A stretch of DNA of 20,000 nt from contig JBNGIO010006317.1 in assembly GCA_049999805.1 (NCBI GenBank), forward strand, positions 189,182 to 209,181, written 5' to 3'. How positions within the stretch are numbered: position 1 is the first letter of the stretch; every line of letters begins with the position of its first letter. Of the stretch, positions 1,800-20,000 are shown piece after piece. The DNA is from Folioceros fuciformis. Lineage: Eukaryota. Position numbers and translations under genes: made by a program. Below the pieces are notes generated by a model, which was not told where the DNA came from, made no database searches, and saw nothing but the letters and a program-made list of their open reading frames with translations.

Positions 1800-3250
1800 T
1801 AGCAAACATAGTGCTCAAGGGTAGGTTTTGATGCCATGGCGTTCAGCCCTAGCATTCAAGTCCTTGCGACCCTCTATTCAAGAGTCCGTCATGACTGCAT
1901 GCTACTAAAAGGGGAACAAAAGTAACATCAGGCTGGATACTGGCGACCAGCATCTGCTCAAAAGAAGCGTCATCACAGGCACCACACTCAGCTATCAGGG
2001 CATTCCATGTCAACAAATCCTTCACAGGCAAAATGTCGAAAACCCAGCTGAATCTTCCAATGCACCATATTATGAGTACATTTCCACCAAACAGTTTGCC
2101 TACCAGAATGTAATCCCCCTAGCCTCTTCCGACAATCTGTGGGTGCAGATGCCTGCCAATCTTCAAGGCACCAACGCTTGCACAGGCCTTAAGAACCCGA
2201 GCCCTTCCTGGGAATGAGCAGCAATCAGCGACATCCACGTCACAACATCTCTTGAGGCCAAGCATTCAAACACCTGACGTACACCTTCCAGTTCAATGCG
2301 TTTGCATGCATGTCTACTGGGCAGTTGCCCAACACACTGAATATAATCTTCCAGTTCAATACACTTGCATGCATGTGTACCAGGCAGTTGCCCAACACAC
2401 TGTTATTCCGCTGTTCCTTTTGGACAACCTGAGAATGCAGCTGCTTGCCCTTTTGCATGGCACCAGTGCTTGCACAGCCTTCAGCAGGCAAGCAACCTTG
2501 GATACGAACGAAGAGTCCCTTTTGCTCCATTGCCCGTACGGAACAAGCGCATCCTGGCCAAGCCCATGCTGAGTACACCCACGAATCAGGGCCGCCCATA
2601 TCACCACATCCTAGTTGACCAAGCTATCAAGGGCCTAGCGTGCATCTTCCAGTTCACCGCACTTGACATTTATGTCCACCAGGCAGGTTCAGATAAACAA
2701 CTTGGGAGGACTGCCAGTGTGCAACACATCCGAGCGCACCTTTCTGCCAGATTCCAAGTCGGCGGCCAACGGACAGGCTTGGAAGGCAGCTACAAAGATG
2801 TGAACATCCGCCATCATACCAGACCTCTCATGTCACGGTAAAGATGTACGGCCCTTTTCGATTCCCATGTTTAGCATGTGCAGAGACTATGGACCCCGTA
2901 CATGGGCATTTGGTTTACCCACCCTGGTGAACACATCCATGGCCCCCCTCTCGCCAACCTCCACCTGCGTACAAGCTCAAGATATGATTCCCCAGATATG
3001 CATCCGACTCGTACCCACATTTGACAGTGAGTTCATGGACTTGTTGCCCCGCAACCAGATTCTTCTTAGCTGCACATAGTTGAAGAACATGGTAGAAAAG
3101 AGAGGGAGATAGCAGAGTTTATCTGCGCCAGAGATTCCACATCTCCAACGGCCTCACAGAGCTTCCCCTGCTGACATAAAGTGCTCACGATCACAGCCGT
3201 CACGACGTCCATTTCCGGCGTAAGGAGATTGGCAAGGTCCTGTGATCAAC
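1800..3250 (-). pseudogene. PLS-class pentatricopeptide repeat (PPR) pseudogene, truncated in the S2 motif (no E/DYW domain visible)
   Basis: Manual minus-strand translation gives consecutive PPR fragments in shifting frames: MDVVTAVIVSTLCQQGKLCEAV (ATG 3212), HVLQLCAAKKNLVAGQQVHELTVKCGYESDAYLGNHILSLY, VKCGELEDAR*ALDSLVN*DVVIWAALIRGCTQHGLGQDAL, CASTGAMQKGKQLHSQV, DLLTWNALIAEC...VTFVPLLVACSHDGLL, HGIK/PTLEHYVC*. There are multiple in-frame stops (e.g. ~2637, ~2612) and frameshifts. Boundaries are approximate. Confidence 0.9.
2285..2402. repeat. Internal 63-bp-period tandem duplication within the PPR pseudogene (duplicated S-motif start)
   Basis: cttccagttcaatgcgtttgcatgcatgtctactgggcagttgcccaacacactg at 2285 and cttccagttcaatacacttgcatgcatgtgtaccaggcagttgcccaacacactg at 2348; translated as SVLGNCLVHMHA and SVLGNCPVDMHA on the minus strand. 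Confidence 0.85.
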
Positions 3251-4346
3251 AGGATGTTCCAACCTGGGTGGTTGAGTAGTTCGATTCTTTGAAGATCCAG
3301 ATGGATCTCTGTTACTCGAGCTCTCCGGAAAAGCCTGAGCCTGGCAGACGTGCTGCACAACTTGTCCCACCACATGGTATGGTCGAAACTACATTGTTGA
3401 TACAACAGCTCCTGCTCCTGACGACAATCATTGCTGAGAAATTTCCCCCAAGCCACACACTTCCTAGAAAGGAGAACTGCGGGGTTCCATACACTGATGC
3501 AACTGGAGGGTAATTGATTCTTTCGCACCGGTCAGGTGGTACATTGGGGAATCCGAGAACACCTACTAGTGTGCTGGGTGCAAAACGGATACCATTGCTA
3601 CACTGTCGCCACCTTACGGTCACAGGTCTTGGAAGTTGAGGCGCAAAGAGCCTCTACAAAACTAGGCCACTCTCAGCATCAGGATTCGACATTTCCTGTG
3701 TACGAAGGTAATTGGGTAGGCGTGTCAAATCTCGGGAACGGACAATCGCATCACAGGGGCTGACAAGATTATGTTGGGAAAGAGACCGATCACGTTCGAA
3801 ATTGTAATCAACAGTGGAATGGACACAGGCATTCACATAGTTACCCAGAAGATCAATACTGCCTCGGGCGATCCGAAAGCCATTTCATTAACCCAGGCAA
3901 AGGAATCGGACGGGACGGGACCGAAGCAGCGCTCAAGTCAGATGAAAAAACACAGTTCCCTACACCACACAGTAAAACTACATCCCGAACATATGGACAA
4001 CTACGTAGAGAATTGCAGACGCGCCAATTGCAACCCATGTCCTAGATAGGGCCATGAACCCGAAGTTCACAGATCCATTTACTGCAGCGAGAAAGTGGTG
4101 GAGGTCATGTACGGCAATCCTCCGCAGCCTCTTGCAATCCAGATCCTGGTACGAAGAACAAGGCCTTGCCCAAGGCTGTAAGCAAATAATAACCGGAATT
4201 CGGGAAACTTTACTACCAAGTGACGCTGGCACCAGCCTCGTCCACCGCATGTCGGCAACCTCAGGGCCGCGGCACGACACATGCTATCTTAACACAGAGA
4301 GAAGCTTAGAGGCCACACAAGGTGCACAATCCAACAGCATCCAGAC

Positions 4347-4784
4347 CTAGATCCGGTCGATATCCTCATCCTCGAATTCGATATAATCATCCCCACCGCC
4401 ATCTTCTTCTTCATCCATGCCACCCGCAATACCCTCGTTGAGACGCAGGTTATCAGGAAGCTCGCTATAAGCCTTGAGCAGCCGAGCTTCATCAGGCTGG
4501 TACTTGAGAATGACGTCCGCTTTGTCATCCTGATAGTCTCGAAGACCTACCAGAATTATGTCACCTGAAGCAATCCACACCTTCTTGTGCATCTTCCCTC
4601 GGATGTGACACAGCCTCTTGGTGCCATCAATACAAAGGGCCTCGCAGCGGCCATTCCCTAGCATCCTCATCACCTGCGCATACTCCTGCCCATCCTCTTT
4701 GAACACCAGTTCTCTCTTGTCATCGTCGGCCTCGTTCTTTCCCCTCTTGCGATTCTTCCCTCCCTTTCCCTTGTTCTTCGGCAT
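4347..4784 (-). CDS. eIF1A: Eukaryotic translation initiation factor 1A (145 aa, intronless CDS)
   Basis: [49 protein letters not shown]...[34 protein letters not shown]...acidic tail EDEDIDRI: typical plant eIF1A sequence with basic N-tail, OB fold and acidic C-tail. Confidence 0.98.
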
Positions 4785-5357
4785 GATGAGACTACAAGCA
4801 GACGCCGCCTCCTGTCTGCCCGCTCGCTCCTGGCAGGAAAGGATACCACACTCGCGATCTCACACCACGTACGATCACACTGCTCGTGCCCTAAAGCATC
4901 CGCACGATCGGCCCCGGATACAGGTACATAAAGATAAATCCTCCAATGCGCCTTTTAGGTCTGCTGTGTCCACGTCCTGCACCTACAAACGCACATATAG
5001 AGGTTATCCGCAGCGTGCTACGTTTAGGTCTCGCTCCCTTTCTAGGTCTATCGTGGCCTTTGTGAGCTCGGTACACGAGGGGTTTGGTGACCAAGTGTAG
5101 ATAACTCACAGTAAAATCGATTACATGAGTAGCTACGCTAAATATATCGTAAAGTAAGATCACGTTCATTTCCATGAACAACAGCTTTATTTTTGAGCTA
5201 AATAAACCGTAGAAAACGGCATTCGATTTCTTGATGTCGGAAACCCGTTACCCGTTCCCCGCGTGCACTGACGTGGAGGGAGGTCTATGATGTCTGACGC
5301 CCGAGGACAGACACAGTGGACTCGAGCATCAAATATGGAGGCAAGCTGCTCGCTCTG

Positions 5358-8300
5358 TCAGTGCACATCCCCACAGGAACAAACACCGTTCACAAAACGG
5401 TGAACACGGTGCGCGTCTCTGACTACGATCTCTCGGTTCTCAATCTTTGACATGACCTTGGTGCCACTGTGACAGTCACCGCACATACGAAGATTCTTGG
5501 TGACTAGTAAGGGTGTGCCATCGCTCGTGTTCAACAGGCCATATGCCAATGCTAGCTTCTCAGCATGCCCGCACAAGGCATCTTCCTTGCCGCCGGCTTC
5601 AGACTTCGTCACCATCTCTAGGTGTCCTCGGCTGTCCTCTAGCAGCGTATTGACACTCCTTAGTTTGGATGAAACATCGTCCCCCTCTTCTCCCACAGTG
5701 AATGTCCGCACCTGGCTGTTGACCTCAATCCAGGCCCTCGCGGGCTTTTTGCAAGCACCGGCAGACCTTCTCGAGTATTCTATCCTCTTTGCATCCCCCC
5801 ACCTACCAGCATTTGCACAAATACCTGCAAAAAGCACGTAAGGGGCGGCATCTTGGGGTTGCAGTCGCACAAGATGGTCAAAGCATCGCCTTCCACGTGC
5901 TAGGTCACCATGGCTCTTGCAGGCACTCAGCAGAGCTCTCCAACCTACAGCGTCGCTCTCAAAGGGCATGCTTTGCAACATGTTTTCTGCCGTCTCTAGG
6001 TGGCCTGATCGGCCGAGTAGGTCCACCATGACATTACGATGATATTCAGAGGGTTTGATGCCATGTTTTTCTAGCATCGTCTGGAAGTAATGCAGGCCCT
6101 CCTCCACTAGGCCCTGGTGACTGCATGCAACAAGGAGACACAGGAACGTAGTGTCATCAGGCACCACCCCATTCTGCTCCATCTCCTGGAAGCACTTCAA
6201 TGCCATCTTGCCCTCGTTACCTTGGGCGTACCCATTCAGCAGGGCATTCCATGTCACTACATCTTTGGTTGGCATTCTGTCGAACAGTTGCCGTGCATCC
6301 TCCATCCTACCACATTTGGAATACATGTCTACAAGGCTACCACCTACAGCCACATTGGCTTCTAGTCCACTGTCCTTGATCTCAGACTGAAGCTGCATTC
6401 CCTGCTGTAAAGCTCCAACACTTGCACATGCTTTCAAAAGGCACGAGTACAAAACAGGGTCAGCTGAAGTGATGCCCTCTAGCTTCATGGTGGCATAAAG
6501 CGCAAGGGCTTCCTGACCAAGGCCATGCTGGGCATACGCTGCAATCATGGCAGTCCATGCCACCAAATCTTTGGCCTGCAAACGGTCAAACACTGAACGA
6601 GCATCCACAAGGCTCCCCTGCTTGGCATACCCCGTGATCATGGAGGTTGCTGACACAGGATGATCCTCAGCCTGTAACTTGTCAAGAATTCTGCGAGCAT
6701 CCTCAAGGCTGTTGCATTTGACATACATGTCCAGAAGGCACTTTTGGATATGGACATCAGTCTCCAGTCCTGCTTCCTGAATCTGGCGGTGAAGCTCCTG
6801 ACCTTCAGGTAATGCACTCACAGCAGCACATGCTTTCAGCAGACATGCGAACGTGGCACAATCAACTGGAGACATACCGTCTTGTTGCATACTTGTATAC
6901 AGCGTAAGGGCTTCCATACCAAGTCCATGCTGAGCATACCCTGTGATCATCGTAGTCCATGACACCACATCTTTGGCCTGCAAATTGTCAAAAACCCTGC
7001 GGGCATCCTTCAGACTTCCACATTTTGCATACATCTCTACCAGGCTGTTGCCAAGGATAAGATTGGATTCCATCCCCCTTTCCTGAATCTCAAAATGAAC
7101 GTGTTTGCCCTGATGTAACGCCCCTGTGTTGCTACATGCCTTCAGCAGGCAAACATAGGTAACATGGTCAGCTGGAGTCGCTCCTTCCTTTTGCATGTCT
7201 GCATACAGAGAGAAGACGTCTCCGAAAAGCATGTGCTGTACACATCCTGTAAGCATTGCATTCCAGGTGATCACATTTCTACTTGGTAGACTGTCAAACA
7301 GTCTGCGAGCAGTTTGCAAGCTCCCACATTTGGAATACATATCTATCAAGCTGCTACCAACTACAACATCAGTCTCCAACCCCCTTTCCTCAATCTGGCG
7401 GTGGACAAGCTCACCAGTGCATAATGCCCCAGCACTAGCACATGCCTTCAAGACGCACAAGAATGTGACGCGATCAGATCGAACACGTCTATCCAACTGC
7501 ATACTTTCATACAGAAAGAGAGCTTCCTTACCAAGCTCCTGGTTGGCATACCCACTGAGCATGGTATTCCATGTCACCACATCTTTTGCGGACAATCTAT
7601 CAAACACTTTCCGAGCATCCCCTAGGTTCCCACATTTTGCGTACATGTCCACCAGACTGTTACCAATAATGGCATCGGATTCCAGTCCCCTTCCCTTAAT
7701 CTGCGCGTGAAGCTCCTTGCCCTCTTGTAAAGCTCCCGTGCTACCGCATACTTTCAGGAGGCACACGAATGTGATACGATCGGCTGGAATAATGCCCTCT
7801 TGCTGCATACTTGCATAAAGTGCCAGCGCTTGGTGACAAAGGCCGTGCTGAGCATACCCTGCAATCATAGCATTCCATGTCACCACATCCCTCCCAGGTA
7901 CACTGTCAAACACTTTGCGAGCATCTTCCACGCTCCCACACTTGGCATACATGTCAATCAAACTACTGCCAACAAATACATTCAACTCAGCTTTGCTCCG
8001 AACAATGTCAGCATGCACCTGCTCTCCAAATTCCAAATCTCCTACAGAGGCACTCGCTCTCAAAACTGCCACATGTATGTAAGTGCTGGGCTTTAAACCT
8101 AACTCTTGCATCCGTTTGTAGAGTGCTATGACCTGTGTGGCATTACCACGTTCGGCATTTGCCAGGATAATGAAATTCCATACAGACGTGTCTGCTACAG
8201 CCCATGTTTTCAAGGAATGTGTTGCTTCCTCCAATCTTCCATGCGAGATATACATGCGAATGATGTGGCTGGCCAGGAATGTGCTGGACTCATACCCAAT

Positions 8301-8525
8301 CTCAATTGTGAGACCGTGAAACTCACTGCCAGCAACTGCATCCTTCTCAGCAACACACCGCCTGAGGGCACGGTATAGGGAGTATGTTGGAACATACGAT
8401 CCCCGGTGCACCAGGAGATCCAAGGCTTCCAAAGCTTCACTGAGCTGTCCTTCCTCACAGAGCTTGTTCCAGATTCCGACCTCCAACGCTGCCACTCTGC
8501 AAGATCGACCAGTCTGTAAATACAA
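5358..8525 (-). CDS. PLS-class PPR protein with E1-E2 and a KP-type DYW deaminase-like domain (DYW:KP, 'DRH'-like terminus); candidate organellar U-to-C RNA editing factor. True start lies upstream and is unresolved.
   Basis: About 24 P/L/S motifs (e.g. VVTWNAMIAGYAQHG, TFVCLLKVC, SLIDMYAKCGS) ending P2-L2-S2 (LLVACSHQGLVEEG, MVDLLGRSG), then E1 (GWRALLSACKSHG) and E2 (APYVLFAGICANAGRW). The terminal domain reads KKPARAWIEV...LCGHAEKLALAYGLLNT...KNLRMCGDCH...RDAHRVHRFVNGVCSCGDVH*. The ORF-track start at 8525 is TTG, not ATG, so an upstream exon is probably needed. Confidence 0.95.
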   Translation of the reverse strand: MYLQTGRSCRVAALEVGIWNKLCEEGQLSEALEALDLLVHRGSYVPTYSLYRALRRCVAEKDAVAGSEFHGLTIEIGYESSTFLASHIIRMYISHGRLEEATHSLKTWAVADTSVWNFIILANAERGNATQVIALYKRMQELGLKPSTYIHVAVLRASASVGDLEFGEQVHADIVRSKAELNVFVGSSLIDMYAKCGSVEDARKVFDSVPGRDVVTWNAMIAGYAQHGLCHQALALYASMQQEGIIPADRITFVCLLKVCGSTGALQEGKELHAQIKGRGLESDAIIGNSLVDMYAKCGNLGDARKVFDRLSAKDVVTWNTMLSGYANQELGKEALFLYESMQLDRRVRSDRVTFLCVLKACASAGALCTGELVHRQIEERGLETDVVVGSSLIDMYSKCGSLQTARRLFDSLPSRNVITWNAMLTGCVQHMLFGDVFSLYADMQKEGATPADHVTYVCLLKACSNTGALHQGKHVHFEIQERGMESNLILGNSLVEMYAKCGSLKDARRVFDNLQAKDVVSWTTMITGYAQHGLGMEALTLYTSMQQDGMSPVDCATFACLLKACAAVSALPEGQELHRQIQEAGLETDVHIQKCLLDMYVKCNSLEDARRILDKLQAEDHPVSATSMITGYAKQGSLVDARSVFDRLQAKDLVAWTAMIAAYAQHGLGQEALALYATMKLEGITSADPVLYSCLLKACASVGALQQGMQLQSEIKDSGLEANVAVGGSLVDMYSKCGRMEDARQLFDRMPTKDVVTWNALLNGYAQGNEGKMALKCFQEMEQNGVVPDDTTFLCLLVACSHQGLVEEGLHYFQTMLEKHGIKPSEYHRNVMVDLLGRSGHLETAENMLQSMPFESDAVGWRALLSACKSHGDLARGRRCFDHLVRLQPQDAAPYVLFAGICANAGRWGDAKRIEYSRRSAGACKKPARAWIEVNSQVRTFTVGEEGDDVSSKLRSVNTLLEDSRGHLEMVTKSEAGGKEDALCGHAEKLALAYGLLNTSDGTPLLVTKNLRMCGDCHSGTKVMSKIENREIVVRDAHRVHRFVNGVCSCGDVH

Positions 8526-9024
8526 GAACGCAGAGAACCTCTATGAACTTACAATCAGCCGTTCAGCGACAACGAAGTCCCATACAACCCAGCACGCGAC
8601 AACTGATGCTGCGGACCTAGAATTGTCGGGGCCCTCTCTGAGCTGGAATCGAGGCAAATCCTGCGTGGTTCTGCGCAGCGAATCTGTAAACTGTTGACCA
8701 TTCTGCTCATTCCCGAAGCGCAACAACAAGTGCCCTGGTCCATCGACTGCCAATTCCATGCAGAATGTCAGTCCCCACAACCGAGAACGACATTGGTAAG
8801 CTCTGTATGAACAAGAACGTGCATGTAACACCTGGCAAGGTAGCAACCGGTGCAGCCCGGCGTCGAACCACTGCTCCACCCAACGTCGACACATATCTGC
8901 ACCATACTTCCACAGGGCTGCGAGCCCCTGCTTTCCCTTCAATCAGGCTCCTGCAACCACAGCATCTCATGTTTGTGTTCACCACCACTCCCCACAGCCA
9001 CGACCTTTCTCAACGAAGCTTCCA

Positions 9025-9211
9025 GCTATCCGACTTGTACCCCTTCCTCACGCTGAGAGCAGGAGCATGGCCATCCTGAGGCAGATCCTTCTTACCCTTC
9101 ACATTTTTTCATAACCGTGTGAAATGCAAGATGGGGAATGTGACAGTCCCTGTGCACCAAAACTCCCAAAGCCTAAACAGCCTCAGCGAGCTGCCCTTGA
9201 TCCCCATAAAG
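9025..9211 (-). pseudogene. Relic 5' fragment of a PLS-PPR paralog (N-terminal degenerate P + first L motif)
   Basis: Minus strand reads LYGDQGQLAEAV*ALGVLVHRDCHIPHLAFHTVMKKCE/GKKDLPQDGHAPALSVRKGYKSDS. This aligns with LCEQGQIAEAVEALGILVETGCRISQPLFYTVAKGCVGKKDLILGRRVHAVIVKGGCEGDT of the + gene (~10001-10185). Shared nucleotide blocks: tcgctgaggctgt, aggctttggg, acacggtt, gggtaagaaggat. One stop and one frameshift. Confidence 0.8.
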
Positions 9212-9769
9212 ATTCCACATGGAACATCTTCGACATGCCAGCAGAACATACACCACCCAGCAACCTTCTCCCTGATTCATCTCAAATACAGTATTGGATC
9301 CAGCTCTTGCTGGTCACCTTCATCAGGCTCGTTGCTAGCCTATTACGCAGACCCTAAGGCTGATTTAGTATGGAATATGACGCATGTCGTCTTCTAGTCC
9401 AGTTGCCTGTATCGGACGCAGCTGAGATCTTCCGGTCGCTAGAGCTCCGATGGGCTACTGGGTTGTGAATGCTGGTATCCGAAGTCTTCGAAGCAGCGTT
9501 GGAGCGCAGTATGCGAGCAGATTTGGGTCCACCAAGCCTGCTCGCATTGTCCGCTTTAACGGAGCTCGCATACTTCCTGCATACAAGACGTTGCGTGTTC
9601 AGGAGAATGTAGAGTGGCAGGCACGGTTCGGATTGGAAGAGGTGGGGCGACAGGAGCTCTTGCGAGTCTTCCCACAAGCGTTGGAGCTGCCTTAGCGGCT
9701 CGGCCCCCGAAATCCCCACGTGTATGGACACCGCAGTCAGTTGTGTCGTCACGTTGGGCCTCTGCTACC

Positions 9770-12619
9770 ATGGCTGCGTGGTGTGCCACACAAAGGGTGG
9801 CGCAGCCTCCTGCAGCACCAGATTTTGCGCACCTGTCAAAGGAAAGGTGGTGGGATGGCAGGAGGAAGAGCACGAACCTGAGGATGGGGCCCAACGAGCA
9901 GGCTTGCGGGATCCTTGCGCTCAAGCCAGCACCTCCCGGCCAAATTCTTGCTACGCCTTCGGAATGCGAGAAGGTCTTAACGTCCGCGACTGTGAGGCAG
10001 CTCTGTGAGCAGGGGCAGATCGCTGAGGCTGTCGAGGCTTTGGGTATTCTGGTGGAGACTGGCTGTCGGATTTCTCAGCCTCTCTTTTACACGGTTGCGA
10101 AAGGCTGTGTGGGTAAGAAGGATTTGATTCTGGGTCGCCGTGTGCATGCTGTCATAGTGAAAGGGGGATGTGAGGGGGACACGTTCTTGTGCAACCACGT
10201 GTTGCGGATGTATGCGGCCCACGCCAGGTTGGGTGAAGCCATGGATGTATTTGAATTGGTTGCCAGACCAGATGCCTTCACGTGGTCTGCCATAATTTCT
10301 GCTCATGTCAAACACGGGCAAGATAAGCGGGCCATACAGCTGTATCGCCAGATGCGCAGGTCGGGCTTGCATCCGGATGGTCATGTGTTCGTAGCTGCTC
10401 TTCAGGCTTGTGCAAGGGGAGCAGATTTGGAAACTGGTCAACAGGTGCATGCCGACGTATTGGCAGCTGGGGCTGAGGCTGATTTGTTCGTCTGTAATGG
10501 CTTGGTGGACATGTATGCGAAGTGTGGCAGCTTGGATGAGGCGCGCAGAGTGTTTGACGGAATGAGCCAAAAGGATGTGGTTACCTGGACAGCTCTGATT
10601 GCAGGTTATTCTCAGCAGGGCATGGGTGAGGAAGCCCTTTTTCATTACAGCGCCATGCAAGAAGAAGGCATTGCTGTAGCCGATTCTGTGACATTTGTCT
10701 GCCTGCTGCAGGCATGTGCAAGCGTGGGTATCTCAGTTTTAGAGAAAGGGATAGAGCTTCATGCGCAGATTGGAAAACGAGGTCTTCTCATGGATGCTGT
10801 TCTTGGTTGTAGCCTGGTGAATATGTACGTAAAGTGTGGCAGCCTGAAGGAGGCCAGGAGTGTGTTCGACGATCTTCGTGAAAAGAATGTGGTGACATGG
10901 ACTGCTCTGATAGCGGGATATTCCGAGCAGGGAAAGGGTGAGGAGGCCCTTAATCTTTACGCTGCTATGCAAGATACAGGCATGGCTGCACCCAACTCTG
11001 TGACATTTGTCTGCCTTCTGCAAGCCTGTGCAAGTGTGGGCACCCTGGCTCTGGAGAAGGGGAAGCAACTTCATGCCCACATTGGAGAGCAAGGTCTCCA
11101 GGCCGATGTGTTCGTCGCCAACAGTTTGGTGAACATGTATGCAAAGTGTGGCAGCTTAGAGGATGCACAGGGTGTGTTCGACGCACTTGGTCACGGTCAA
11201 AAGAATGTAGTAACATGGAATGCCATGATAGCAGGGTATTCCCAGCAGGGAATGGGTCAAGAGGCTCTTGGTCTCTACAGGGCCATGCAAGAAGAGGGGA
11301 TGATTGCCCCTGATTCTGTGACTTTTGTTTGCCTCCTGCAGGCATGTGCTAGTTTGGGCACCCCGGCTTTGGACATGGGGATGCAACTTCATACTCAAAT
11401 CAGAGAATGTGGACTTCAACGTGAGGTGATCGTAGCCAACAGTCTGGTGAACATGTATGCAAAGTGTGGGAGCTTGGAAGAGGCAAAAGTGGTATTTGAC
11501 GGGCTGTGCCAAAAGAATGTTGTTTCGTGGACCACTCTGATAGCAGGGTATTCTCAGCAGGGCATGGGCCAGGAAGCTCTTCGTCTGTACAAAGCAATGC
11601 AAGAAGAAGGGACTGTGGCCCCCAACTCTGTTACTTTCGTATGCCTCTTGCAAGCTTGTGCACATGTGGCAGCTTTGGATCTGGGAAGGGATCTTCATCT
11701 TCAGATCGAAAAGCAAGGCCTTCAATCTGATGCACTTGTAGCTGTGAGTTTGGTAGACATGTATGCCAAGTCAGGGAGCATGGTTGATGCGCAGCTGGTG
11801 TTTGACGCATTGCCCAAAAGAGATGTTGTCGCATGGAATGCTTTGATTTCAGGCTACACCCGACAAGGCAACAGCGATATGGTTTTTGACCTGTTCCATA
11901 GAATGAGAGAGGATGTCATACAGCCAGCCGGCGCCACCCTCTTGAGTGTTTTAACAGTATGCAGTCATGTGGGTCTAGTGAATGAGGGACAGGAGTACTT
12001 TAAAGCTATGACCGGACACTACGGTGTGACCCCCACAGTGGAACACTACACATGCATGGTGGATCTCCTTGGTCGCGCAGGCCAAGTGGAGGAGGCACTG
12101 GGAATGATACAAACAATGCCTATGCTGCCTGATGCTGCAGTTTGGCACACTCTCTTGGGTGCTTGTCAAAAGTGGAGCAATGTGGAAGTGGGACTCCTTG
12201 CTTTTGATGAAGCAGTGAAGCTAGACAAGACAGACGCGGCTGCGTATGTGTTGATGTCGAACATATACACCAGTGCGCAAATGTGGGAGCAGGCACAGGA
12301 TATGCAGGTGAGTAGAAAAGGGACCGGGGCCTTGAAGCAGCCAGGCCAAAGCTTCTGGACAGACCTGGACGGGCAAGTGCATAGTTTCTTGGTTGAAGAT
12401 CTGAAGCCCACTGAAAGTGCAGGTCATCACACAGACCCCAAACACCAGTTCTTTGGAACGCATGTGGCTGGATCACTCGTACGTGTGGATCATCCCTCAT
12501 TATTACTCATCGTGAAATGTCTGCGAGTTTTCGTTCATGGTCAAAATGACACGGCCTACATATCCAAAGTGGACAGGCGAATTGTTACATACGGACAAAA
12601 CATATTACACAAGGACTGA
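9770..12619 (+). CDS. PLS-class PPR protein (about 20 motifs, including 37-aa long-L motifs) with E1-E2 and a degenerate WW-type DYW domain; probable organellar RNA-binding/editing specificity factor lacking its own catalytic site
   Basis: First ATG at 9770 in good context (ctaccATGG); the ORF-track start 9614 is GTG. An N-terminal ~70 aa extension is compatible with a transit peptide. Repeated S-P-L triplets follow (SLVNMYAKCGSL / VVTWTALIAGYSQQG / SVTFVCLLQACASVG), then P2-L2-S2 (VCSHVGLVNEG, HYTCMVDLLGRAG), E1 (WHTLLGACQKWSNVEVG), E2 (AYVLMSNIY) and KQPGQSFWTDLDGQVHSFLVED. No HxE or CxxC follows. Confidence 0.93.
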   Translation: MAAWCATQRVAQPPAAPDFAHLSKERWWDGRRKSTNLRMGPNEQACGILALKPAPPGQILATPSECEKVLTSATVRQLCEQGQIAEAVEALGILVETGCRISQPLFYTVAKGCVGKKDLILGRRVHAVIVKGGCEGDTFLCNHVLRMYAAHARLGEAMDVFELVARPDAFTWSAIISAHVKHGQDKRAIQLYRQMRRSGLHPDGHVFVAALQACARGADLETGQQVHADVLAAGAEADLFVCNGLVDMYAKCGSLDEARRVFDGMSQKDVVTWTALIAGYSQQGMGEEALFHYSAMQEEGIAVADSVTFVCLLQACASVGISVLEKGIELHAQIGKRGLLMDAVLGCSLVNMYVKCGSLKEARSVFDDLREKNVVTWTALIAGYSEQGKGEEALNLYAAMQDTGMAAPNSVTFVCLLQACASVGTLALEKGKQLHAHIGEQGLQADVFVANSLVNMYAKCGSLEDAQGVFDALGHGQKNVVTWNAMIAGYSQQGMGQEALGLYRAMQEEGMIAPDSVTFVCLLQACASLGTPALDMGMQLHTQIRECGLQREVIVANSLVNMYAKCGSLEEAKVVFDGLCQKNVVSWTTLIAGYSQQGMGQEALRLYKAMQEEGTVAPNSVTFVCLLQACAHVAALDLGRDLHLQIEKQGLQSDALVAVSLVDMYAKSGSMVDAQLVFDALPKRDVVAWNALISGYTRQGNSDMVFDLFHRMREDVIQPAGATLLSVLTVCSHVGLVNEGQEYFKAMTGHYGVTPTVEHYTCMVDLLGRAGQVEEALGMIQTMPMLPDAAVWHTLLGACQKWSNVEVGLLAFDEAVKLDKTDAAAYVLMSNIYTSAQMWEQAQDMQVSRKGTGALKQPGQSFWTDLDGQVHSFLVEDLKPTESAGHHTDPKHQFFGTHVAGSLVRVDHPSLLLIVKCLRVFVHGQNDTAYISKVDRRIVTYGQNILHKD
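10505..11780 (+). repeat. Coding tandem repeat: S-P-L triplet units with ~312-bp period
   Basis: The motif gtg(g/a)a(c/t)atgta...aagtgtgg recurs at 10505, 10817, 11129 and 11447, with a more diverged copy at 11753 (spacings 312, 312, 318, 306). Units are very similar in protein sequence. Confidence 0.85.
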
Positions 12620-14292
12620 TTGGTCTCAGAAATATATAATCCACAATCTACCATACTACAAGCTGAAAGTGTGGTAATGGGTTGTCTGTTGCGTCTAGCA
12701 GAGGTAGGAATTGGAGGAGTATGGCCAACGAATTATGTTCAGGCTTGTCAGAACTTGCCAGATCAATGCTCATGACTAGATCTCACAGTGTCGATGACCC
12801 GTGGAATGCCTGTACATCCAGATTCTGAGCTACCACTCCGCAGTCTCCAGGTGAAAGTCTACTATCAGACGATCTCCCGAGCTCGTCACTGGCCAACCTG
12901 CGAAGGAGCACGACATATACATGTGTTGGTACCCATCTCCTCATGGTATGGCCATGATGCTCATGCTAACTTCTGGCCCTTTGCTGCAGATGCTGATTGA
13001 AGGTGTGAGCTACTTGTAACTCTCTTTGCAGGATTCTACTCGGGGTGTGCACACCCACTCAAGCACGTGGTAAGCGGTGTGAAGTGAACTTGCTGGGTTT
13101 CTTGTTGGTTTGTGGGTTCCAGTGTGGCGTGTGTGCCTCATCGTGAAGATGTGGTGTTATTCATTCAGGAAAAGCATGGTCACCAACCGCAGGAGAGAGG
13201 GCTGCTGCCGTGCACTCTGCACCAGTATGAATGTCGGTACCACGAGTCCGACTGACGGTTCTTTATTTTTTTGGATCTTCTGAATATCCTCCGGTTGCAA
13301 GGGTGTATGCAGTGCCCCACTCGTAGAAGAGACGAAACACTTGATTCTATCTCCAAAAAGGACGGACCTAGAGTAAGTCCACAAACTCGAGCTAGTGGTT
13401 CGCTTGAGAGACTGAACGCACCAGGGCAGTGATGCATCAAGACAAGTGCGTTTTCTATGACCAAAAACCGACCTCCAAATCGAAAGGGACGCGTACAAGA
13501 ATTTTCAAGCCGGATGAGACAAACAAACTGTAATGTGTGAACACAAAGCCATTCCTGCCTTCGTACTGAGGAGAAGAAGTTACTCGCTTCCCTGGCTGTG
13601 CCTCGCTGGGCATGAACAGGTTGTGTTTCGGTTTTATTATGTCTATATTTCTTTTCACTCTAAGTATGCTTTAGTTCCATGTCTGAAATGGTACGTGCAT
13701 ACTTCGGACAGTTTCCATCGTGCTACGCAGCAGGGATATAGAAGAGAAGGCAAATTGAAGAGGTTGAAGACTTTGCCAATAATAAGAACCCAAAACATTC
13801 TAACTAATCACAGTAACACGATCACAACGGGATTCGAATCCATAACCTTTTGACGTCAAGTGCATTGGACAAATCCATCCATCGCTCAATTCAATCCAAG
13901 CATAATTTGCGATTTGTTGAATACAGTGACGACAAACCCATCTCTCATGAGGATGAGGAGAAAAAATTGGAAGAGGGCCCAACTTATCCTAGGAAGAGAT
14001 GGGCAAGCCCATTTCATCTACCCGAGGAATGAGGAGGGGAATGCCCTATTGTTTACATGGCATGCTAGAAGAGAAGTTGCTAAATATTAATGAATGTAAT
14101 TAATGGACAGGTTGTGGCCGGCTGTGAATGGAGAATGGGTTGAGAGGAAGGAGTGAATTCGGGAACAATGATGAGTCGATGATGAAGGAGCCGTGGGCAG
14201 CCAGCTGGGCGGTCCATAACTCCGCCCACAAGGAGCGGGAGGGATTACAGACGCGGCCCGCGGCCCCGAAAGTGGATGATAGCTAAGCTAGC

Positions 14293-14307
14293 TAGGGTTT
14301 TTTAAAT
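14293..14307 (-). promoter_or_regulatory. Telo-box (AAACCCTA) overlapping a TATA-like element (TATTTAAA)
   Basis: The + strand tagggttttttaaata is tatttaaaaaacccta on the minus strand; a pyrimidine-flanked A (ctATCA) lies ~25-30 nt downstream near 14280. Confidence 0.45.
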
Positions 14308-14512
14308 AATGGGAATGGGAACGGGAACGGAACGGGACGGGACCTGGTACCGGCTGCAGCGTACAGTACTTGACCGGGAAAAGGTTATGCCACGCCCCTG
14401 TACTTGGCAAGCTGTAAAGCGCTGACGTCGTAGGTCCGATTGACCCGCTTGGCCCTGCCCTTTGACTCAAGGGAACCAGGAACCGGGCCCCGGCCGCCCG
14501 TCCCACCGGCCC

Positions 14513-14560
14513 GGCCCAGGCCCAGGCCCAAGCCCAGGCCCAGGCCCAGGCCCCGGCCCG
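14513..14560. promoter_or_regulatory. Tandem array of site II (TGGGCY/RGCCCA, TCP-type) motifs, hexamer repeat
   Basis: ggccca ggccca ggccca agccca ggccca ggccca ggcccc ggcccg: six consecutive perfect RGCCCA in a CpG-rich island, with CACGTG at 14591 and TGACGT at 14423. The repeat is directly visible; its function is inferred. Confidence 0.55.
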
Positions 14561-17500
14561 AGGCTCGCGACACACGCCGGCGGGTGGCGGCACGTGTGGC
14601 CAGCGCATGCGTGCCTGGCGGCTGCCTCTACCTTCACACTTCGCACTGTAATATACCTTTCTCCCCCATTCCGTTGTCGCCTCGTCCGCCTTTGACGGAG
14701 GCCCTGGATTCCGTTCCGTCTGGCCCTGTCCCATTGGCGCGGCACTGGACTGCAGAGCTCCCCTTTTCACTCCGCGCTCGATGCCGCCGCAATCTTCCTT
14801 TTCACGCTTCCGGTTTCCCCTTCCCCCGCTTCCGCGCTGCTTGCCCTAATCGGAGCTGCATGCCCAGGGTCCCGGGGGTAAGGGGAGGAGGCCCCCCTTT
14901 CCCCCCCCCCGGCTCATCAACGGCTTTCTTCATGCAGCTGGCCAAGCCGTGGTGGAGGGAAGGGAAGGGAAGGGAAGCCAGGTGGGAGTGGCGTGACGGG
15001 GGGGAGTGAGGTCACCTGCGGATTCACTTGCGACTGAAACCTCCCGCTTCTCTTTCTTTTTTTGTTGCATGCTCGAGGTCGAGGCCGAAGCCGGGGTCAG
15101 CAGCCAGTTGCAATGATATGCTATGGTGTACTTGGACGACATCATCGCATATTGGTGTTGCCGACACCAGGCTTACAATCTCTGTTGGTGGAAGCGACGA
15201 GGGGAGAAAGCCTCATGGGACGAGGGTATCCTCGTCGGTGTCAGAGCCCGGGGGTCCCAGCCACTGCCTTCATTAGGGTTTGCATGTCTAATCACCTGCT
15301 CCAGTTGCATGGTAATACGGAATGAGATTGTAGCCCTCATGACCGGTGCCACAGGGGAGAATACGATGCTGTGAACCTTCCCACCGTCCTTGCAACATAG
15401 CACACACACGGCATGCTGCTTTCGTCACATGACCGATGCCAGCCACCTATCGACATATGTACCTCTCGTTGCGTCCAGTGATTCGGAACTTGGCCCGGGA
15501 GGTCTAGTTTGCAGCATGTCCCCGGCCCTCGCCGAGGTTCTCCGGGATCTGAACTTGGATCTTGCTTAGCTAACCTTGTGGCCAGCTCCAGACCAAATTG
15601 TCCTGAAGGAAACCAAATCTTGAGGCTGGATCTGAGCCGTGTTGTCTGTGCGATGAGCCTGGCTGTGAGGAGCAGAGTAGGCCAGGCCAGTCTGGGAACA
15701 CCTGATTCTGCCCTCTTGTGCCACCGCTCTGATGAAGCGGACGCAGTGGCGCCTGCGAGAAAGCTGCGGCGCGGCAGAGACGGTTAGGGCTTTCTGGTAG
15801 ATGGATACACAGATATGTTACAACAAGAGGCAGGCAGGCACTGCTCTGGAGGCATGATGATGGATTGAGAGAACGTGAATTCATCTCCCATCTCATGGTA
15901 TGAACATGAACAAGGGCGTTCTACATTCCGCCCTGCACCACCTTGTGCATGCGTCCAATTGAGTGTGTGAGCGAGTGAGTGAGTGGGAGTCTTGGCCGAG
16001 GAAGTCCAAGCGTAGTCTAGGTCAATCCTCGCAGCAGGCATTGTCACATACTGCAGACTGCCTGCCCCTGCCTAGTGTATATATACAAACTGTGGCGCAG
16101 AGGGCAGTGTAAGCACGTGGCGAAGATTAGAGGTGTGTAAGACACCATGCCCCTGCTGCTTGGTGCGTGATCCCATGAGGTGGCCTGACGATGGAACTGG
16201 CTTACTGATCCATGCTGCTGGACGTCATGCGTACCGCAGCATCTGCATGAACCACGGCGTTCCACGCCGGCTGGCAGGGCTGGGCTGGCTGTATGATGCA
16301 TACATCATGCGCCGGCACCCTTTCTAGGGAGGGAAATGGCGGTGTTGAGATCTGTGCGACCCCACCAGGTCCAGTAACCGCAGCACTGGAAAGGGCCAAC
16401 AACAGAAGTGAACCGTCGATGCTAGCCAGGCGCTGGGCCAAGGAAGAGAGCTTGGAAGACACCCTTCGAACCCACGACCGGACCATAGTAAACAAATTTC
16501 TCGACTAGGTATGTAGAGGTATAAAGGTCCGAGAAGTTTCAGTTGTTCCACCATCTTAGTGCGGCCGGACTCCCACTATACTGTGCTACCACCTATGAGA
16601 CTCGTTATTGTTATATAAAATCTCACGAATCCTGGGAACAAGTCCTTCCAAATTTCGGTGAATCTTCAAATGACGGCAGGAGCGACAATATTCCCTCGAG
16701 CTTTATGCTGCAGCCAAGCTTAGACTACTCCTGGACTAGAACAACAGGCTGCAGACAAACCACGAAAGATGGCAAAAACGTTGCTTCACAAATGTTGTCT
16801 CTGAATCACCGACTTGCAACATGTCCACAGGCAGAAGCAGAACCTCCATCCATATCATCTGATCTACGCTGTTTCCTGCAAATTCATCTACCAAGTGCAG
16901 TTTCCACCCTTTTCGCGGCCACTATGTGCGTGATAGAAGAAAAACTCCTCTACTAGTAGAAGCCTCCAGGCACTCCAGCTCCCGCAGGATCCACAAAGCT
17001 AAAGAGCAGTTCCTCTTCGCTCACCACAGCCACAGGCCAGAACTGTCTGTCTGTCACAAAAGCCTTTCGAAAAACCGACAGCTAGCTTAGCTACTTCTTG
17101 AGATTTGCTAGTATAAGATGCATATACAAAGGGGTGAGTGACAACGGGCAGACATAAAGAACCAAGTTTGAGCTTGCTCCCTCGGATTTCCCTGCAGCTC
17201 CTTCCTATCTATCCTGCAAAACTCTTGGTTAATATATACCAGCAGTTACAACTGTCCCTAACAGCTGGAGAGGCCTATTATGCCGCCACCACAACCGCCA
17301 CCGCCTCTTCCTGCTGCTCCTCCTCCTCCCTTCCGTCAGTCATCACTGAGAAGAACTGTCTTCTTCGACCGCACACACAGAAGCCTTGCCATTGCATCAT
17401 CCATCTTTCTCCAAGGCTCCACCCCTCAGCATTCCGGCAGGATTGGCTGAGGGAAGAAAGGAGAGACACCGACCCACACACACCGTGCCTCCTCGAGCAC

Positions 17501-18030: not shown

Positions 18031-19422
18031 TCAGGACTTCATTACAGCAACGTTGGAGATGAAATGGGTCTCGGTGTTAGCCACCCGCCTCCAAGCCAAA
18101 GGCCCGCCGGATGGGTCGGGCTTGCAGGCATCGATGTGGGGCACAGGGCCGTCGAGGCTCTGGCCCCCGATGACCCACAACTCCCCACCCAGGGAACGGA
18201 AACCCAGCCCCCATCCATGGTTGGTAATGCCCCGGGAGGGCACCTTGCCCAGGCTGGACCACTCCTTCGTCTGCTTGTCATAGCTTTTGAGCTCGAGGCA
18301 GGATGCGTCCAGCGCATAAAGCTGGTCGTCCACCACGGCCACCAGAGGAGGCGCATACTGACCTAGATTGGCATGCGGCATCTGGTCCGGCCACATACCC
18401 TCCACGAGCGTCCACCTGCGGGTCTCAGGGTCGTAGAACTCCCCGCTGCTGAGCTGCACCAGCTGCCCCGCCTCGTTCATGGTCATCCCGCCCAACACGT
18501 AGAAATGCTTGTCCATGAAGAAGCCGGAGCACTCACGGCGGGGGAAATGCATGTCCTCCAACAGCTCCCACTCGCGCGTCTCTGAGCTGAATCGTTCCGC
18601 GCTCTTCCGGATAGCCATAGGACCCCCGGCCGCAAACACACCCCCGGCAACCCACGCGTACTTCCCGTAGCTGGCGGATGCGAACAACGAGCGCTGCTCC
18701 TTCATGGACTGCGCCACCGACCAGCCATTTACATCGGAATCGTACATGTAGATGATGGCCTTGGTGCAGCCAAAGGTGCTGTCCATCGTCTGACCCACAA
18801 CCAGCAGCTGCCGCCCAGCCACCGTGCACTCCCGATCGCAGGTCTGGAACATGACATCCCTTGGCAGGTTCGGCAGCACCAGCCATTGCAGTGTCGTGGT
18901 GTCCAGCGCCTTCCAGAGCAAGTCCTGGCCCCTGGTGTGCCCGGACGTGCCCATGTAGACCCACTCCTCCAACACGCAAAGTTCCTGCCGGATTCTATAG
19001 ATGAGGCTGGGTCCAAGGATCTCGCGCCACGCCTTGGACACCTGCCGGAACCTGCCGTAGAAGCTGCGCGGAATTCTGGCCAGGATCCACAGGCTTATCT
19101 CCTGCGGCAGACCCGGGATCACGTCATGCACGTTGGACGTGGATGTCCCGTCCTCGGAATTCGGACTCGTCTCCACGTTCTGGTTTTGGTTGTGATTCTC
19201 CTTGTCCCTCTTGCGGCAGTTGCCGATATCCTTGCTGTTGTTGCTGGTGGTGGAGATGGAGAGGGACGAGTAAGGGTCCGGGTGGTTCCCTTCTCCGGAA
19301 GCCGACGCCGAAGCCCCCGTCGATACCACCTCGTCTGCCTCCCGGGGGTCCGCCAAAATGCACCCTTCCACACGAAGTCGCTTCGCCATCATCCCCGGGC
19401 GCCGCCGGCTGATCCTGCTCAT
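18031..19422 (-). CDS. F-box/Kelch-repeat protein (SKIP11-like clade), 463 aa, intronless as seen; N-terminus could extend into the adjacent gap
   Basis: F-box IPGLPQEISLWILARIPRSFYGRFRQVSKAWREIL followed by EEWVY. Kelch repeats: LLVVG...YMYDSDVNGWS..QSMKEQRSLFASASYGKYAWVAGG...SAERFSSETREWELLEDMHFPRRECSGFFMDKHFYVLGG...SGEFYDPETRRW. Also APPLVAVVDDQLYA and HGWGLGFRSLGGELWVIGG, which are typical of this plant clade. Confidence 0.93.
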   Translation of the reverse strand: MSRISRRRPGMMAKRLRVEGCILADPREADEVVSTGASASASGEGNHPDPYSSLSISTTSNNSKDIGNCRKRDKENHNQNQNVETSPNSEDGTSTSNVHDVIPGLPQEISLWILARIPRSFYGRFRQVSKAWREILGPSLIYRIRQELCVLEEWVYMGTSGHTRGQDLLWKALDTTTLQWLVLPNLPRDVMFQTCDRECTVAGRQLLVVGQTMDSTFGCTKAIIYMYDSDVNGWSVAQSMKEQRSLFASASYGKYAWVAGGVFAAGGPMAIRKSAERFSSETREWELLEDMHFPRRECSGFFMDKHFYVLGGMTMNEAGQLVQLSSGEFYDPETRRWTLVEGMWPDQMPHANLGQYAPPLVAVVDDQLYALDASCLELKSYDKQTKEWSSLGKVPSRGITNHGWGLGFRSLGGELWVIGGQSLDGPVPHIDACKPDPSGGPLAWRRVANTETHFISNVAVMKS

Positions 19423-19431
19423 GAAACCGAC

Positions 19432-19531
19432 NNNNNNNNNNNNNNNNNNNNNNNNNNNNNNNNNNNNNNNNNNNNNNNNNNNNNNNNNNNNNNNNNNNNN
19501 NNNNNNNNNNNNNNNNNNNNNNNNNNNNNNN
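19432..19531. other. Assembly gap (100 N, probably a placeholder of unknown true size)
   Basis: Run of exactly 100 n. Confidence 0.99.
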
Positions 19532-20000
19532 CCACCCCGAAAACGCTCACTGGCACCAGAGCATCGCCGCCATCACCACAGCCCCCGTCTTCCCCATTCT
19601 CATCATCCCGGCCCAGCTAAAGCCCCAGCTGCAGCAAACAAGCAAGCAGCACACGACCCACCACAGCGGCACGCAAGGCAAACGAAAAGGGCAAGGGCAA
19701 GGGTAGAAAAAGGCAAGGCAGAGCTCAAATCCCAGCCCTACCAGATCCACTTTCGCAATACACAGCCCCAACCCTACCAAGGTCCACCGCACCCACGCAG
19801 AGAGCCCACCAATCCAGCCAGCAGGTCAGCTGGCCGGGAGCAGAAGAGCGGGCCAGGCAGGAAGAAGGGGGCCGGCGCTGGAGGAGGCGAGCGGGATTGC
19901 AGAAGCAGGAAGGACGCGGCGAACGAGGAGGAGAGCGCGGAGGGATGGAAGGAAGGAGGAAAGGAAGGAAGGGAGGAGGGAGGCGCAGCGAAGTGGGGGA

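Follow-up and report, generated by a model that had tools for sequence, protein, structure and literature searches.

An intact, transcribed hornwort PPR gene with a DYW:KP domain and a shortened gating finger, a candidate U-to-C editing factor

The minus strand of the DNA analyzed here (a stretch of 20,000 nucleotides of Folioceros fuciformis, hereafter the window) carries an intact, spliced and transcribed gene for a PLS-type PPR protein that ends in a DYW:KP deaminase-like domain. The explanation that we favor, and consider reasonably probable, is that the product is an intact organelle-directed protein that performs U-to-C RNA editing. The segment of the domain that corresponds to the gating finger of structurally known C-to-U deaminases is shorter by three residues than in the closest relatives. 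All features of the gene described below lie on the minus strand and are numbered by position in the window.

Gene structure and transcription

The open reading frame listed at 5358-8525 has the translated end quoted in the original prediction, though it is not a complete gene. It begins with TTG, its first in-frame ATG lies approximately 90 codons in, and the true start is found in upstream exons. Two small 5′ exons, added from the spliced contigs of two organisms, give a gene of three exons with a coding sequence of 1135 codons starting at 8970. The spliced coding sequence of 3408 nt contains a single stop codon, the terminal one, by frame check. Exon 3 (5358-8496) encodes the PPR array, the E1 and E2 motifs and the DYW domain, with the stop codon. 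It is preceded by intron 2 (8497..8616, 120 nt), exon 2 (8617..8746, 130 nt), intron 1 (8747..8831, 85 nt) and the coding part of exon 1 (8832..8970), whose ATG at 8970-8968 has an in-frame stop codon upstream.

Both introns have GT..AG borders. The joints at 8496 and 8832 are present in record 21 of the contigs of X2 (organism A) and in record 29 of those of X4 (organism B), in which the interval 8497-8831 is skipped at GT..AG sites. In both spliced contigs 130 letters stand between the two joints, a middle piece that has no listed alignment of its own, and we infer the placement of exon 2 from enumeration of splice sites and a frame check. Among 20 candidates of 126-134 nt it is the sole AG/GT-flanked one of exactly 130 nt, and the frame stays open through it. 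A contig of X2 also matches the window over 5336-7661 with 0 differences. A contig of X1, listed as DNA by a guess, is unspliced through 7912-8831. The labeling of X2 and X4 as RNA is likewise only a guess, and transcription is established by the splice joints, not by the sample label.

The coding sequence is followed at about 91-95% identity by contigs of organisms B and D, which cease to align 2 nt beyond the stop codon. Differences between these contigs and the window are listed only in part; the indels that are listed in the coding-sequence-length alignment cancel to multiples of three. Exon 1 encodes the start of an arginine-rich leader (Arg accounts for 13 of the initial 95 residues) that has no similarity to relatives; similarity starts at about residue 94. 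This leader is probably an organelle-targeting presequence, judging from its composition, and the protein, the product of a nuclear gene, would be imported into an organelle.

The 5′ leader of the transcript (8971..9435) is covered by record 21 of X2, which reaches 9435. It contains several ATGs, all out of frame or stopped, and, at 9101-9241, a PPR first-motif copy that has decayed. The long leader with its upstream ATGs and decayed motif, a second decayed PPR copy at 1864-3112 of the window, and the identity of only 48.6% to the closest full-length relative among the collected proteins would be in keeping with a decaying, non-functional paralogue in a very large family. We regard decay as very improbable, given the 3408-nt spliced frame free of internal stops, the splicing in two organisms, the mutually compensating indels and the retention of all catalytic residues (below). 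The description of the gene as apparently intact is thus upheld.

Protein architecture and predicted RNA target

The PLS-type PPR array (5952..8496) comprises approximately eight P-L-S triplets, with a single additional S-type motif among them, followed by P2-L2-S2. It is matched by the Pfam families PPR, PPR_1, PPR_2 and PPR_3 with E-values from 1e-47 to 1e-105, and the motif anchors repeat at spacings of 31, 35 and 36 residues. The PPR-like motifs E1 (5850-5951) and E2 (5751-5849) were segmented from the motif anchors, and Pfam E_motif (PF20431) is found within 5751..5951 with an E-value of 1.4e-10. The order of the Pfam matches, PPR families, E_motif and then DYW_deaminase, is the architecture of a PLS-class editing factor.

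The array would read approximately 23 nucleotides of one organellar transcript. From a PPR code derived by hand from the motif anchors, the motif predicted for positions -26 to -4 reads G C n G U n U U n A U n U G n ? G G n (G) U n U. Through E1 and E2, the DYW:KP domain would then be placed on a pyrimidine lying 4 nt 3′ of the S2 contact.

Motifs, catalytic residues and fold of the DYW domain

The DYW:KP deaminase-like domain (5358..5750) consists of 130 residues and the stop codon. In the open reading frame, residues 976-1054 align to Pfam DYW_deaminase (PF14432) with an E-value of 3.3e-31 and 107.4 bits (cut-off 24). Given this score, and with an E motif and numerous PPR repeats preceding it, the match is not due to chance. 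The translation contains each of the motifs that the original prediction had named: the KP box KKPARAWIEV (5750-5721), the zinc-ligand His/Glu motif HAE (5567-5559) in HAEKLA, the zinc-ligand CxxC (5483-5472) in RMCGDCH, and the C-terminal triplet DVH (5369-5361) in CSCGDVH, directly before the stop codon.

In a 59-row alignment (A1), the His and Glu of HxE, the active-site Lys, CxxC-H and H..CxC are invariant, and the query retains all of them; H162, E164, K185, C190 and C193, in the numbering of a 230-residue query, are such columns. The Lys (5498-5496) is residue 85 of the 130-residue domain and corresponds to residue 88 of relatives with 133 residues (Lys88), relative to which the query domain is three residues shorter. 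The middle residue of HxE separates the two subclasses. Among 54 KP-box rows, 43 have HAE (as does the query), six HCE, four HVE and one HSE, compared to HSE in 140 of 141 PG rows under a looser rule for labeling the box, which mixes in P-G-x-T proteins. The query has Met in KNLRMC in place of PG Val95, and it lacks the xHP residues, with a gap relative to the PG structures after V-G-E-E-G; absence of xHP is typical of the KP class, whose domains number 132-133 residues as opposed to 136. No other KP-box row ends in DVH, although DAH, DNH and DHH do occur among the 54. The terminus, described earlier as a variant, is a one-off form of the hornwort DRH end.

The AlphaFold2 model of the query has a mean pLDDT of 88.5 and a pTM of 0.79. 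A Foldseek search with this model returned 9kfx_A (E-value 4e-21, query TM-score 0.84) and the DYW domain of OTP86 (target TM-score 0.73-0.81). The fold and zinc ligands are the same as those of the DYW:PG structures of OTP86 (7o4e/7o4f), DYW1 (7w86) and a synthetic PPR-DYW protein with RNA (9kfx), to which the sequence is related with E-values of 1.7e-33 to 7.8e-26; the query Lys corresponds to K915 of OTP86. These structures differ from the query in their PG box, HSE, Val in KNLRVC, xHP residues, DYW end and full-length finger, and in the C-to-U direction of their reaction.

Assignment to the DYW:KP subclass

The subclass names KPAxA and PG/WW are also used, and the papers of Gutmann et al. 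(2020) and Gerke et al. (2020) are said to be the founding ones. The DYW:KP class is defined by a Lys-Pro pair that replaces Pro-Gly in the N-terminal box, according to the available portions of two reports (PMC11845758, PMC11332814). The further differences from PG given in the accessible parts of the literature are the box as a whole, HAE, the Met in KNLRMC, the missing xHP and an end other than DYW (PMC9478123, PMC11845758), and the DRH and GRP ends are hornwort variants (PMC9478123, in part).

The original prediction had proposed scoring against KP and PG profiles and a DYW phylogeny, and both place the query with KP. With split-sample profiles the query scored 203.1 bits on KP and 141.3 bits on PG, a margin of +61.8 bits. 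In held-out controls the KP profile gave the higher score for 27/27 KP-box rows and for 0/91 PG-box rows. A quick tree proved unreliable for the AU test. The tree constrained to group the query with PG was 21.8 lnL better than the free tree, which is a search artefact, and a careful search was therefore used instead. The careful IQ-TREE analysis comprised 77 rows and 122 columns, after removal of the box, the middle residue of HxE, the Met/Val column and the end. The query fell in a clade of 31 rows (30 KP-box and one with a variant box) with 99/91 support. All 22 PG rows lay behind a 100/98 branch, which was present in 100% of 200 bootstrap trees. Clustering with PG domains, which had been named as one of the outcomes that would speak against the prediction, was not seen in the careful tree, although the AU test did not reject the grouping of the query with PG (delta lnL 28.3, p 0.105).

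A canonical DYW:PG (C-to-U) domain was also considered as a candidate and rejected, as the PG box, HSE and DYW end all differ and the query falls 61.8 bits short of its KP score on the PG profile. The DYW:KP assignment, as judged from motifs, profile score and tree placement, is well supported and agrees with the original prediction.

Direction of the editing reaction

By analogy with designed members of the class, the DYW:KP domain would convert U to C. The published activity assays used consensus designer proteins, of which three of seven (KP2, KP3 and KP6) were active in the available text of that report; KP1, which is mainly DRH-based and of the designs stands closest to the subclass of the query, is not among these three (PMC9478123). 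KP2 and KP3 performed U-to-C editing in Escherichia coli and C-to-U editing was not detected, as described in the same part of the source (PMC9478123). KP6, in the portion of its report at hand, performs C-to-U editing as well, and single substitutions reverse the balance between the two (PMC11845758). The U-to-C activity of the designers requires HAE, CxxC and Lys88, according to the same partial sources (PMC9478123, PMC11845758). The original statement that designer KP proteins perform U-to-C editing thus stands for KP2, KP3 and KP6, as far as the available text extends. The accompanying statement that the chemistry is unresolved is partly outdated, for a mechanism with a Lys88 crosslink or Schiff base has since been proposed with support from mutagenesis, in the parts of the two papers available (PMC11332814, PMC11845758). 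If the query works as proposed for the designer KP proteins, its conserved Lys (domain residue 85) would attack C4 of the uridine beside the zinc that HAE and CxxC coordinate.

The designers KP2 and KP3, which are of the GRP type of hornworts, and KP6, which is of the fern type, belong to the same class as the query, with HAE, CxxC, Lys88 and, by numbering, Met92 in common. They are consensus domains on a designer PLS array, whereas the query is encoded by a native gene and has an array of its own. The group of KP6, that of the tracheophyte KP domains, is nearer to PG in the tree. Five positions tune the direction of KP6, and we mapped them to the query by numbering alone. At two, Ala (D116A) and Val (I119V), the query leans to U-to-C. 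At the other three, the Gly before HAE (E64G), Val (L113V) and the final His (F133H), it leans to C-to-U, and it was these three substitutions that rendered KP6 specific for C-to-U. The active GRP-type relatives have the same residues as the query at the four internal positions of this set.

These residues bear on the possibility that the protein is an active editing factor with C-to-U or bidirectional activity, as for KP6. The dual activity of KP6, with its balance so readily tipped, lends this some weight, as do the Trp of the query box, which is as in PG (S-W-I-E) and stands where DRH relatives commonly have Cys, and a placement beside PG that the AU test tolerates. Yet the query has HAE and not HSE, the KP box, the Met in KNLRMC, the profile margin of +61.8 bits and the equivalent of Lys88; moreover, the Gly and Val are common to the GRP-type relatives, from which the U-to-C-active KP2 and KP3 were built. 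We judge C-to-U or bidirectional activity to be unlikely and retain U-to-C editing as the favored reading.

The shortened gating finger

The original prediction had noted a linker a few residues short before the active site, and the shortening is real. The affected segment (5574..5624, domain residues 43-59) was identified as the gating β-finger by sequence alignment to the OTP86 structure 7o4e. In OTP86 the gating domain spans H837-G891 and the finger 870-891 (PMC7611903). Three residues, V-P-H in the closest relatives, are absent directly after G-H, at approximately 5622/5621. Measured from the start of the box, the His of HxE lies at a distance of 61 residues in the query, compared to 64-65 in 31/54 KP-box relatives and 68 in 147/182 PG-box proteins. 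The deletion is in frame and common to the contigs of three organisms, those of B and D aligning without a gap at this site. In the AlphaFold2 model the finger has pLDDT values below 50, whereas in the control relative P0004, modeled from the same 59-row alignment, they never fall below 70. The low values may, however, reflect that few homologues share the segment, and perhaps nothing else.

A box-to-His distance of at most 62 residues is found in 11/54 KP-box rows and in 1/182 PG-box rows, which suggests relaxed constraint. Deletion of the finger of OTP86 markedly reduced editing (PMC7611903). This precedent, with the poor order of the finger in the model and the recurrence of equally short or shorter segments in KP-box proteins, raises the possibility of a conserved RNA-binding specificity factor whose DYW:KP catalysis is weakened by the short finger, the protein either relying on a partner enzyme or acting by binding only. 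Weakened catalysis seems to us improbable, if a little less so than a C-to-U reaction. The zinc ligands, Glu and Lys are all kept, the in-frame deletion recurs in the three organisms, the low pLDDT may stem from the scarcity of homologues with this segment, and the authors of the OTP86 structure stated that strong autoinhibition may be dispensable for U-to-C editing (PMC7611903).

In a bolder reading, the short, poorly ordered finger is a conserved functional feature. The "gated zinc shutter" by which PG deaminases are autoinhibited would have become looser in KP domains as a group, and the gene would encode a natural minimal-finger U-to-C enzyme, which as a native protein might complete the reaction that the designer proteins leave stuck at the crosslink. 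Supported by the length statistics, the deletion common to contigs of three organisms and the contrast in AlphaFold2 confidence between query and control relative, this is a tentative idea that we hold to be doubtful, albeit somewhat more plausible than weakened catalysis.

Relatives, lineage and neighboring genes

The nearest named sequences are four EukProt proteins of the hornwort Nothoceros aenigmaticus (P0122, P0123, P0134 and P0188), with 64-67% identity over E2-DYW. They are paralogues and not orthologues, end in DRH or DNH, and have the full G-H-V-P start of the finger. The protein search did not find an orthologue; its best match was P0188, a fragment of 101 residues ending in DRH, with 84% identity over 39% of the query. 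The query resembles the hornwort DRH subgroup of DYW:KP proteins in the KKPA.A box, HAE, KNLRMC, the missing xHP and membership of the 99/91 clade. Both keep the Asp of the end triplet and its paired Lys in C-H-x-x-T-K, whereas the GRP types have lost these two residues by replacement. The query differs from this subgroup in ending D-V-H and not D-R-H, in the box Trp where many DRH proteins have Cys, and in the finger that lacks V-P-H.

More than 1400 PPR proteins are reported for one hornwort (PMC10030945), and a published catalogue of DYW:KP genes covers 22 genomes of hornworts (PMC13386178). A low editing frequency has been reported for the hornwort Leiosporoceros, in the available part of that study (PMC6082510). 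Besides the decayed PPR copy mentioned above, the window contains an adjoining PPR gene of E+ type, which fits a subgroup reported to be enriched only in hornworts (PMC13386178); no further DYW remnant was found downstream of this neighboring gene or elsewhere in the window. A kelch gene has its best named matches in mosses and lycophytes, at 41-45% identity, none of them close. The Nothoceros relatives, the E+ gene and these matches are compatible with a hornwort source.

Significance

Within its extensive known family the gene is an ordinary representative that does not depart from the known class, and its value is therefore practical and not conceptual. Native DYW:KP editing is not reported in the published assays that we found, within the available portions of those sources. 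The complete native gene model is a concrete construct for such an assay, offering a start codon, a probable presequence, a PLS array native to the protein and a target motif that can be derived. Designer KP proteins stall in bacteria as RNA-protein crosslinks, according to the accessible part of that report (PMC11332814). The shortened finger of the native protein is a naturally occurring variant of the regulatory element of the PG deaminases.

Gene structure and transcription

The deaminase-like domain is encoded at the end of one open frame of 1055 codons on the minus strand (5358-8525), whose last 130 residues, from K-K-P-A-R-A-W-I-E-V to C-S-C-G-D-V-H, occupy exactly 5358-5750 when the stop codon is included. 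The Pfam DYW_deaminase profile matched this frame (E 3.3e-31; 107.4 bits, cut-off 24), downstream of numerous PPR repeats and an E motif; tblastn found no second complete DYW domain elsewhere in the window. The motifs quoted in the original prediction (the KKPARAWIEV box, HAE, CxxC and the DVH end) were all present in the translation. The frame opens at a TTG right after a stop, with its first in-frame ATG about 90 codons inside, and the true 5' structure beyond it was resolved by aligning public contigs to 2000-13500. A contig from organism A (X2 record 21, 1370 nt, no differences) aligned to 9435-8832 and 8496-7861 with 130 letters between; one from organism B (X4 record 29), about 8-9% different, had identical joints and likewise 130 letters between. 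A contig of run X1, labelled DNA by a guess, was continuous and unspliced across 7912-8831. All run labels ("RNA?" or "DNA?") are guesses, and the evidence for transcription and splicing is the joints at GT..AG sites, which also give the strand. By these joints, the KP gene (the PPR gene that carries the domain) is transcribed and spliced on the minus strand.

Between the joints there are 20 possible exons of 126-134 nt with AG/GT flanks; only one, 8746-8617, measures exactly 130 nt, and from this match to the spacer we infer that it is exon 2. The coding model, all on the minus strand, thus runs from exon 1 (8970-8832, ATG at 8970, joint at 8832) through intron 1 (85 nt), the putative exon 2 (130 nt) and intron 2 (120 nt) to exon 3 (8496-5358, joint at 8496). 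The coding sequence has 3408 nt and 1135 codons; its only stop is terminal, and a further stop lies in frame before the ATG. The first 95 residues of the protein contain 13 arginines and resemble no relative, likeness to relatives beginning near residue 94; this segment of about 95 residues looks like a putative organelle presequence. Within the 5' leader, at 9101-9241 of the minus strand, lies a decayed copy of a PPR first motif with stop codons, which by eye is closer to the N-terminal motif of the neighbouring plus-strand PPR gene than to that of the KP gene, and which possibly arose by inverted duplication.

Assignment to the DYW:KP class

Excerpts of PMC9478123, PMC11845758 and PMC11332814 define DYW:KP domains by a Lys-Pro pair replacing Pro-Gly in the N-terminal box, Ala or Cys in place of Ser in HxE, a variable C-terminal end that is not DYW, loss of the xHP residues (132-133 amino acids against 136), and Met92 in place of Val95; Lys88 is described there as kept in the KP and PG classes alike. 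All five features are present in the window's domain (Lys-Pro box, HAE, non-DYW end, no xHP, Met). The DYW:KP class proposed for 5358-5750 is borne out by each of these features, and by profile and tree placement. Two protein searches gave 241 relatives, 239 of them with recognisable HxE and CxxCH anchors, which were labelled by the box alone (54 KP-box, 182 PG-box, two without a box and one other). Profiles were built from half of each box group and tested on the remainder. Held-out KP-box rows favoured the KP profile in 27 of 27 cases (median +57.9 bits) and held-out PG-box rows in 0 of 91 (median -61.7 bits); the query scored 203.1 bits on KP versus 141.3 on PG, in agreement with the prediction.

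The alignment for the trees was stripped of the box, the residue between H and E in HxE, the Met/Val column and all positions from the end triplet onward. A quick tree covered 102 rows, made up of all 57 non-PG rows plus a random draw of 45 from the 182 PG rows. In it, every PG row lay behind a branch with SH-aLRT 98, and the query fell inside a clade of 33 rows (support 97). The careful tree (77 rows, 122 columns) comprised 55 non-PG rows, two gappy ones being left out, and 22 PG rows; these last split off with 100/98 support, and did so in 100% of the 200 bootstrap trees. The query's clade of 31 rows (30 with a KP box, one with a variant box) had 99/91 support; the bootstrap of this tree had not fully settled. 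A tree forcing the query to group with the PG rows was 28.3 lnL worse and was not rejected by the AU test (p 0.105), a test of low power with 122 columns. By every sequence feature tested, the KP protein belongs to the hornwort DRH-like branch of DYW:KP.

The ends of the 54 KP-box rows include DRH (13) and GRP (4), the two variants described in hornworts in excerpts of PMC9478123. DVH occurs in one of the 54, and DAH, DNH and DHH are present too. The same excerpts state that the end-triplet Asp bonds with the Lys of C-H-x-x-T-K; the KP protein keeps both residues, whereas GRP proteins do not. We interpret the DVH end as DRH altered at its middle position, which is under loose constraint.

The shortened gating finger

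The linker is indeed shorter than in relatives, as had been noticed: V-P-H is absent directly after G-H. In the alignment to OTP86 (7o4e), a solved PG-type structure, the gap lies where the beta-finger (residues 870-891) begins within the gating domain (H837-G891) (PMC7611903). The box-to-His distance is 61 in the KP protein, and distances of at most 62 occur in 11 of 54 KP-box versus 1 of 182 PG-box rows, some short rows possibly being assembly fragments; the length of the box-HxE segment is therefore far more variable in KP than in PG proteins. The alignment of contigs from organisms B and D runs through this place unbroken (X4 record 27, 0 gaps), and the deletion is thus shared with them; the gaps listed for run X16 (6197-6201 and 6658-6661) lie elsewhere.

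An AlphaFold2 model of the last 230 residues, built with 58 relatives, had a mean pLDDT of 88.5 and a pTM of 0.79, with pLDDT below 50 at residues 143-151 and 153-159 (domain residues 43-59, the shortened finger segment). The identical alignment headed by a control relative with a full finger (P0004) gave 95.5 and no residue below 50. In the model, the low-confidence finger may reflect real disorder, or merely few homologues sharing the segment. The remainder of the model matches 9kfx_A, a synthetic PPR-DYW-RNA complex (E 4e-21, TMq 0.84), and OTP86 (TMt 0.73-0.81).

Relatives and neighboring genes

Behind 22 better matches, the top-ranking full-length match with a name is a lycophyte protein (52% identity), and four close shorter matches are EukProt accessions of the hornwort Nothoceros aenigmaticus. 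A search of the protein collection found no full-length orthologue, the best match being 48.6% identical. The KP protein departs from its nearest relatives in the end triplet (Val), the box (Trp) and the gating finger (three residues shorter); all three differences are inside the family's variation. Since hornworts reportedly have more than 1400 PPR proteins (PMC10030945) and KP genes are catalogued across 22 hornwort genomes (PMC13386178), the KP gene is a further member of an established family.

Its divergent neighbor (9770-12619, plus strand) is a PLS-class PPR gene of E+ type, with PPR repeats, an E motif and a PG-type box (K-Q-P-G-Q-S-F-W), its ATG about 800 nt from the KP gene start codon. 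It ends about 15 residues into the DYW domain, after the PG box, and its predicted product is an E+ type protein without deaminase; no DYW remnant was found downstream of its 3' end. An X2 contig crosses this end unspliced (12201-12703). The E+ type PPR subgroup is reportedly enriched in hornworts only (PMC13386178). With the Nothoceros matches and the DRH and GRP ends, this neighbor makes a hornwort the likely source of the window.

An intronless eIF1A gene (4347-4784, minus strand; Pfam eIF-1a, E 1.8e-23) lies 574 nt downstream of the KP gene stop codon and has high-depth contigs in RNA-like runs of three organisms. A decayed PPR pseudogene occupies 1864-3112 (minus strand; overlapping tblastn matches of 24-49% identity, spread over several frames and containing stops). 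Contig depth added up across 2000-3535 is high in the three runs labelled RNA and elevated in X1, and this sequence is probably multi-copy. An F-box/kelch-repeat gene (18031-19572, minus strand; Kelch_1, E 3.1e-15) is broken in its 5' part by an assembly gap (run of N) at about 19430-19530; among named proteins its top matches, from mosses and lycophytes, reach only 41-45% identity, none being close. The GC-rich segment at about 14430-14700 (61.5% GC over 14001-15000), which translates as Pro-Arg or Ala-Trp repeats depending on frame, is probably a short tandem repeat.

Predicted target and direction of editing

In the PPR code, residue 5 and the last residue of P and S motifs reportedly specify nucleotides. 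Derived by hand from the motif anchors with these two residues per P and S motif, the predicted RNA target from -26 to -4 is G C n G U n U U n A U n U G n ? G G n (G) U n U, where n is an L motif, ? an S motif with Lys at position 5, and (G) a Gly/Asp pair. From class membership only, we infer that the KP protein would act in the U-to-C direction. In the best-supported model, proposed for designer proteins, the active-site Lys would attack uridine C4 to give a Schiff-base crosslink; edited fern RNA is not crosslinked, according to excerpts of PMC11332814, and native enzymes must therefore resolve this crosslink. Excerpts of PMC11845758 describe Lys88 as essential, its replacement giving a C-to-U deaminase, and the designer protein KP6 as working in both directions. 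At the five direction-tuning positions of KP6, mapped by numbering anchored on Lys88 and Met92, the KP protein has two U-to-C-leaning and three C-to-U-leaning residues. The three designs reported as active in excerpts of PMC9478123 do not include KP1, the designer based on DRH proteins. The KP gene could serve as a complete native construct with which to address U-to-C catalysis by a native protein.
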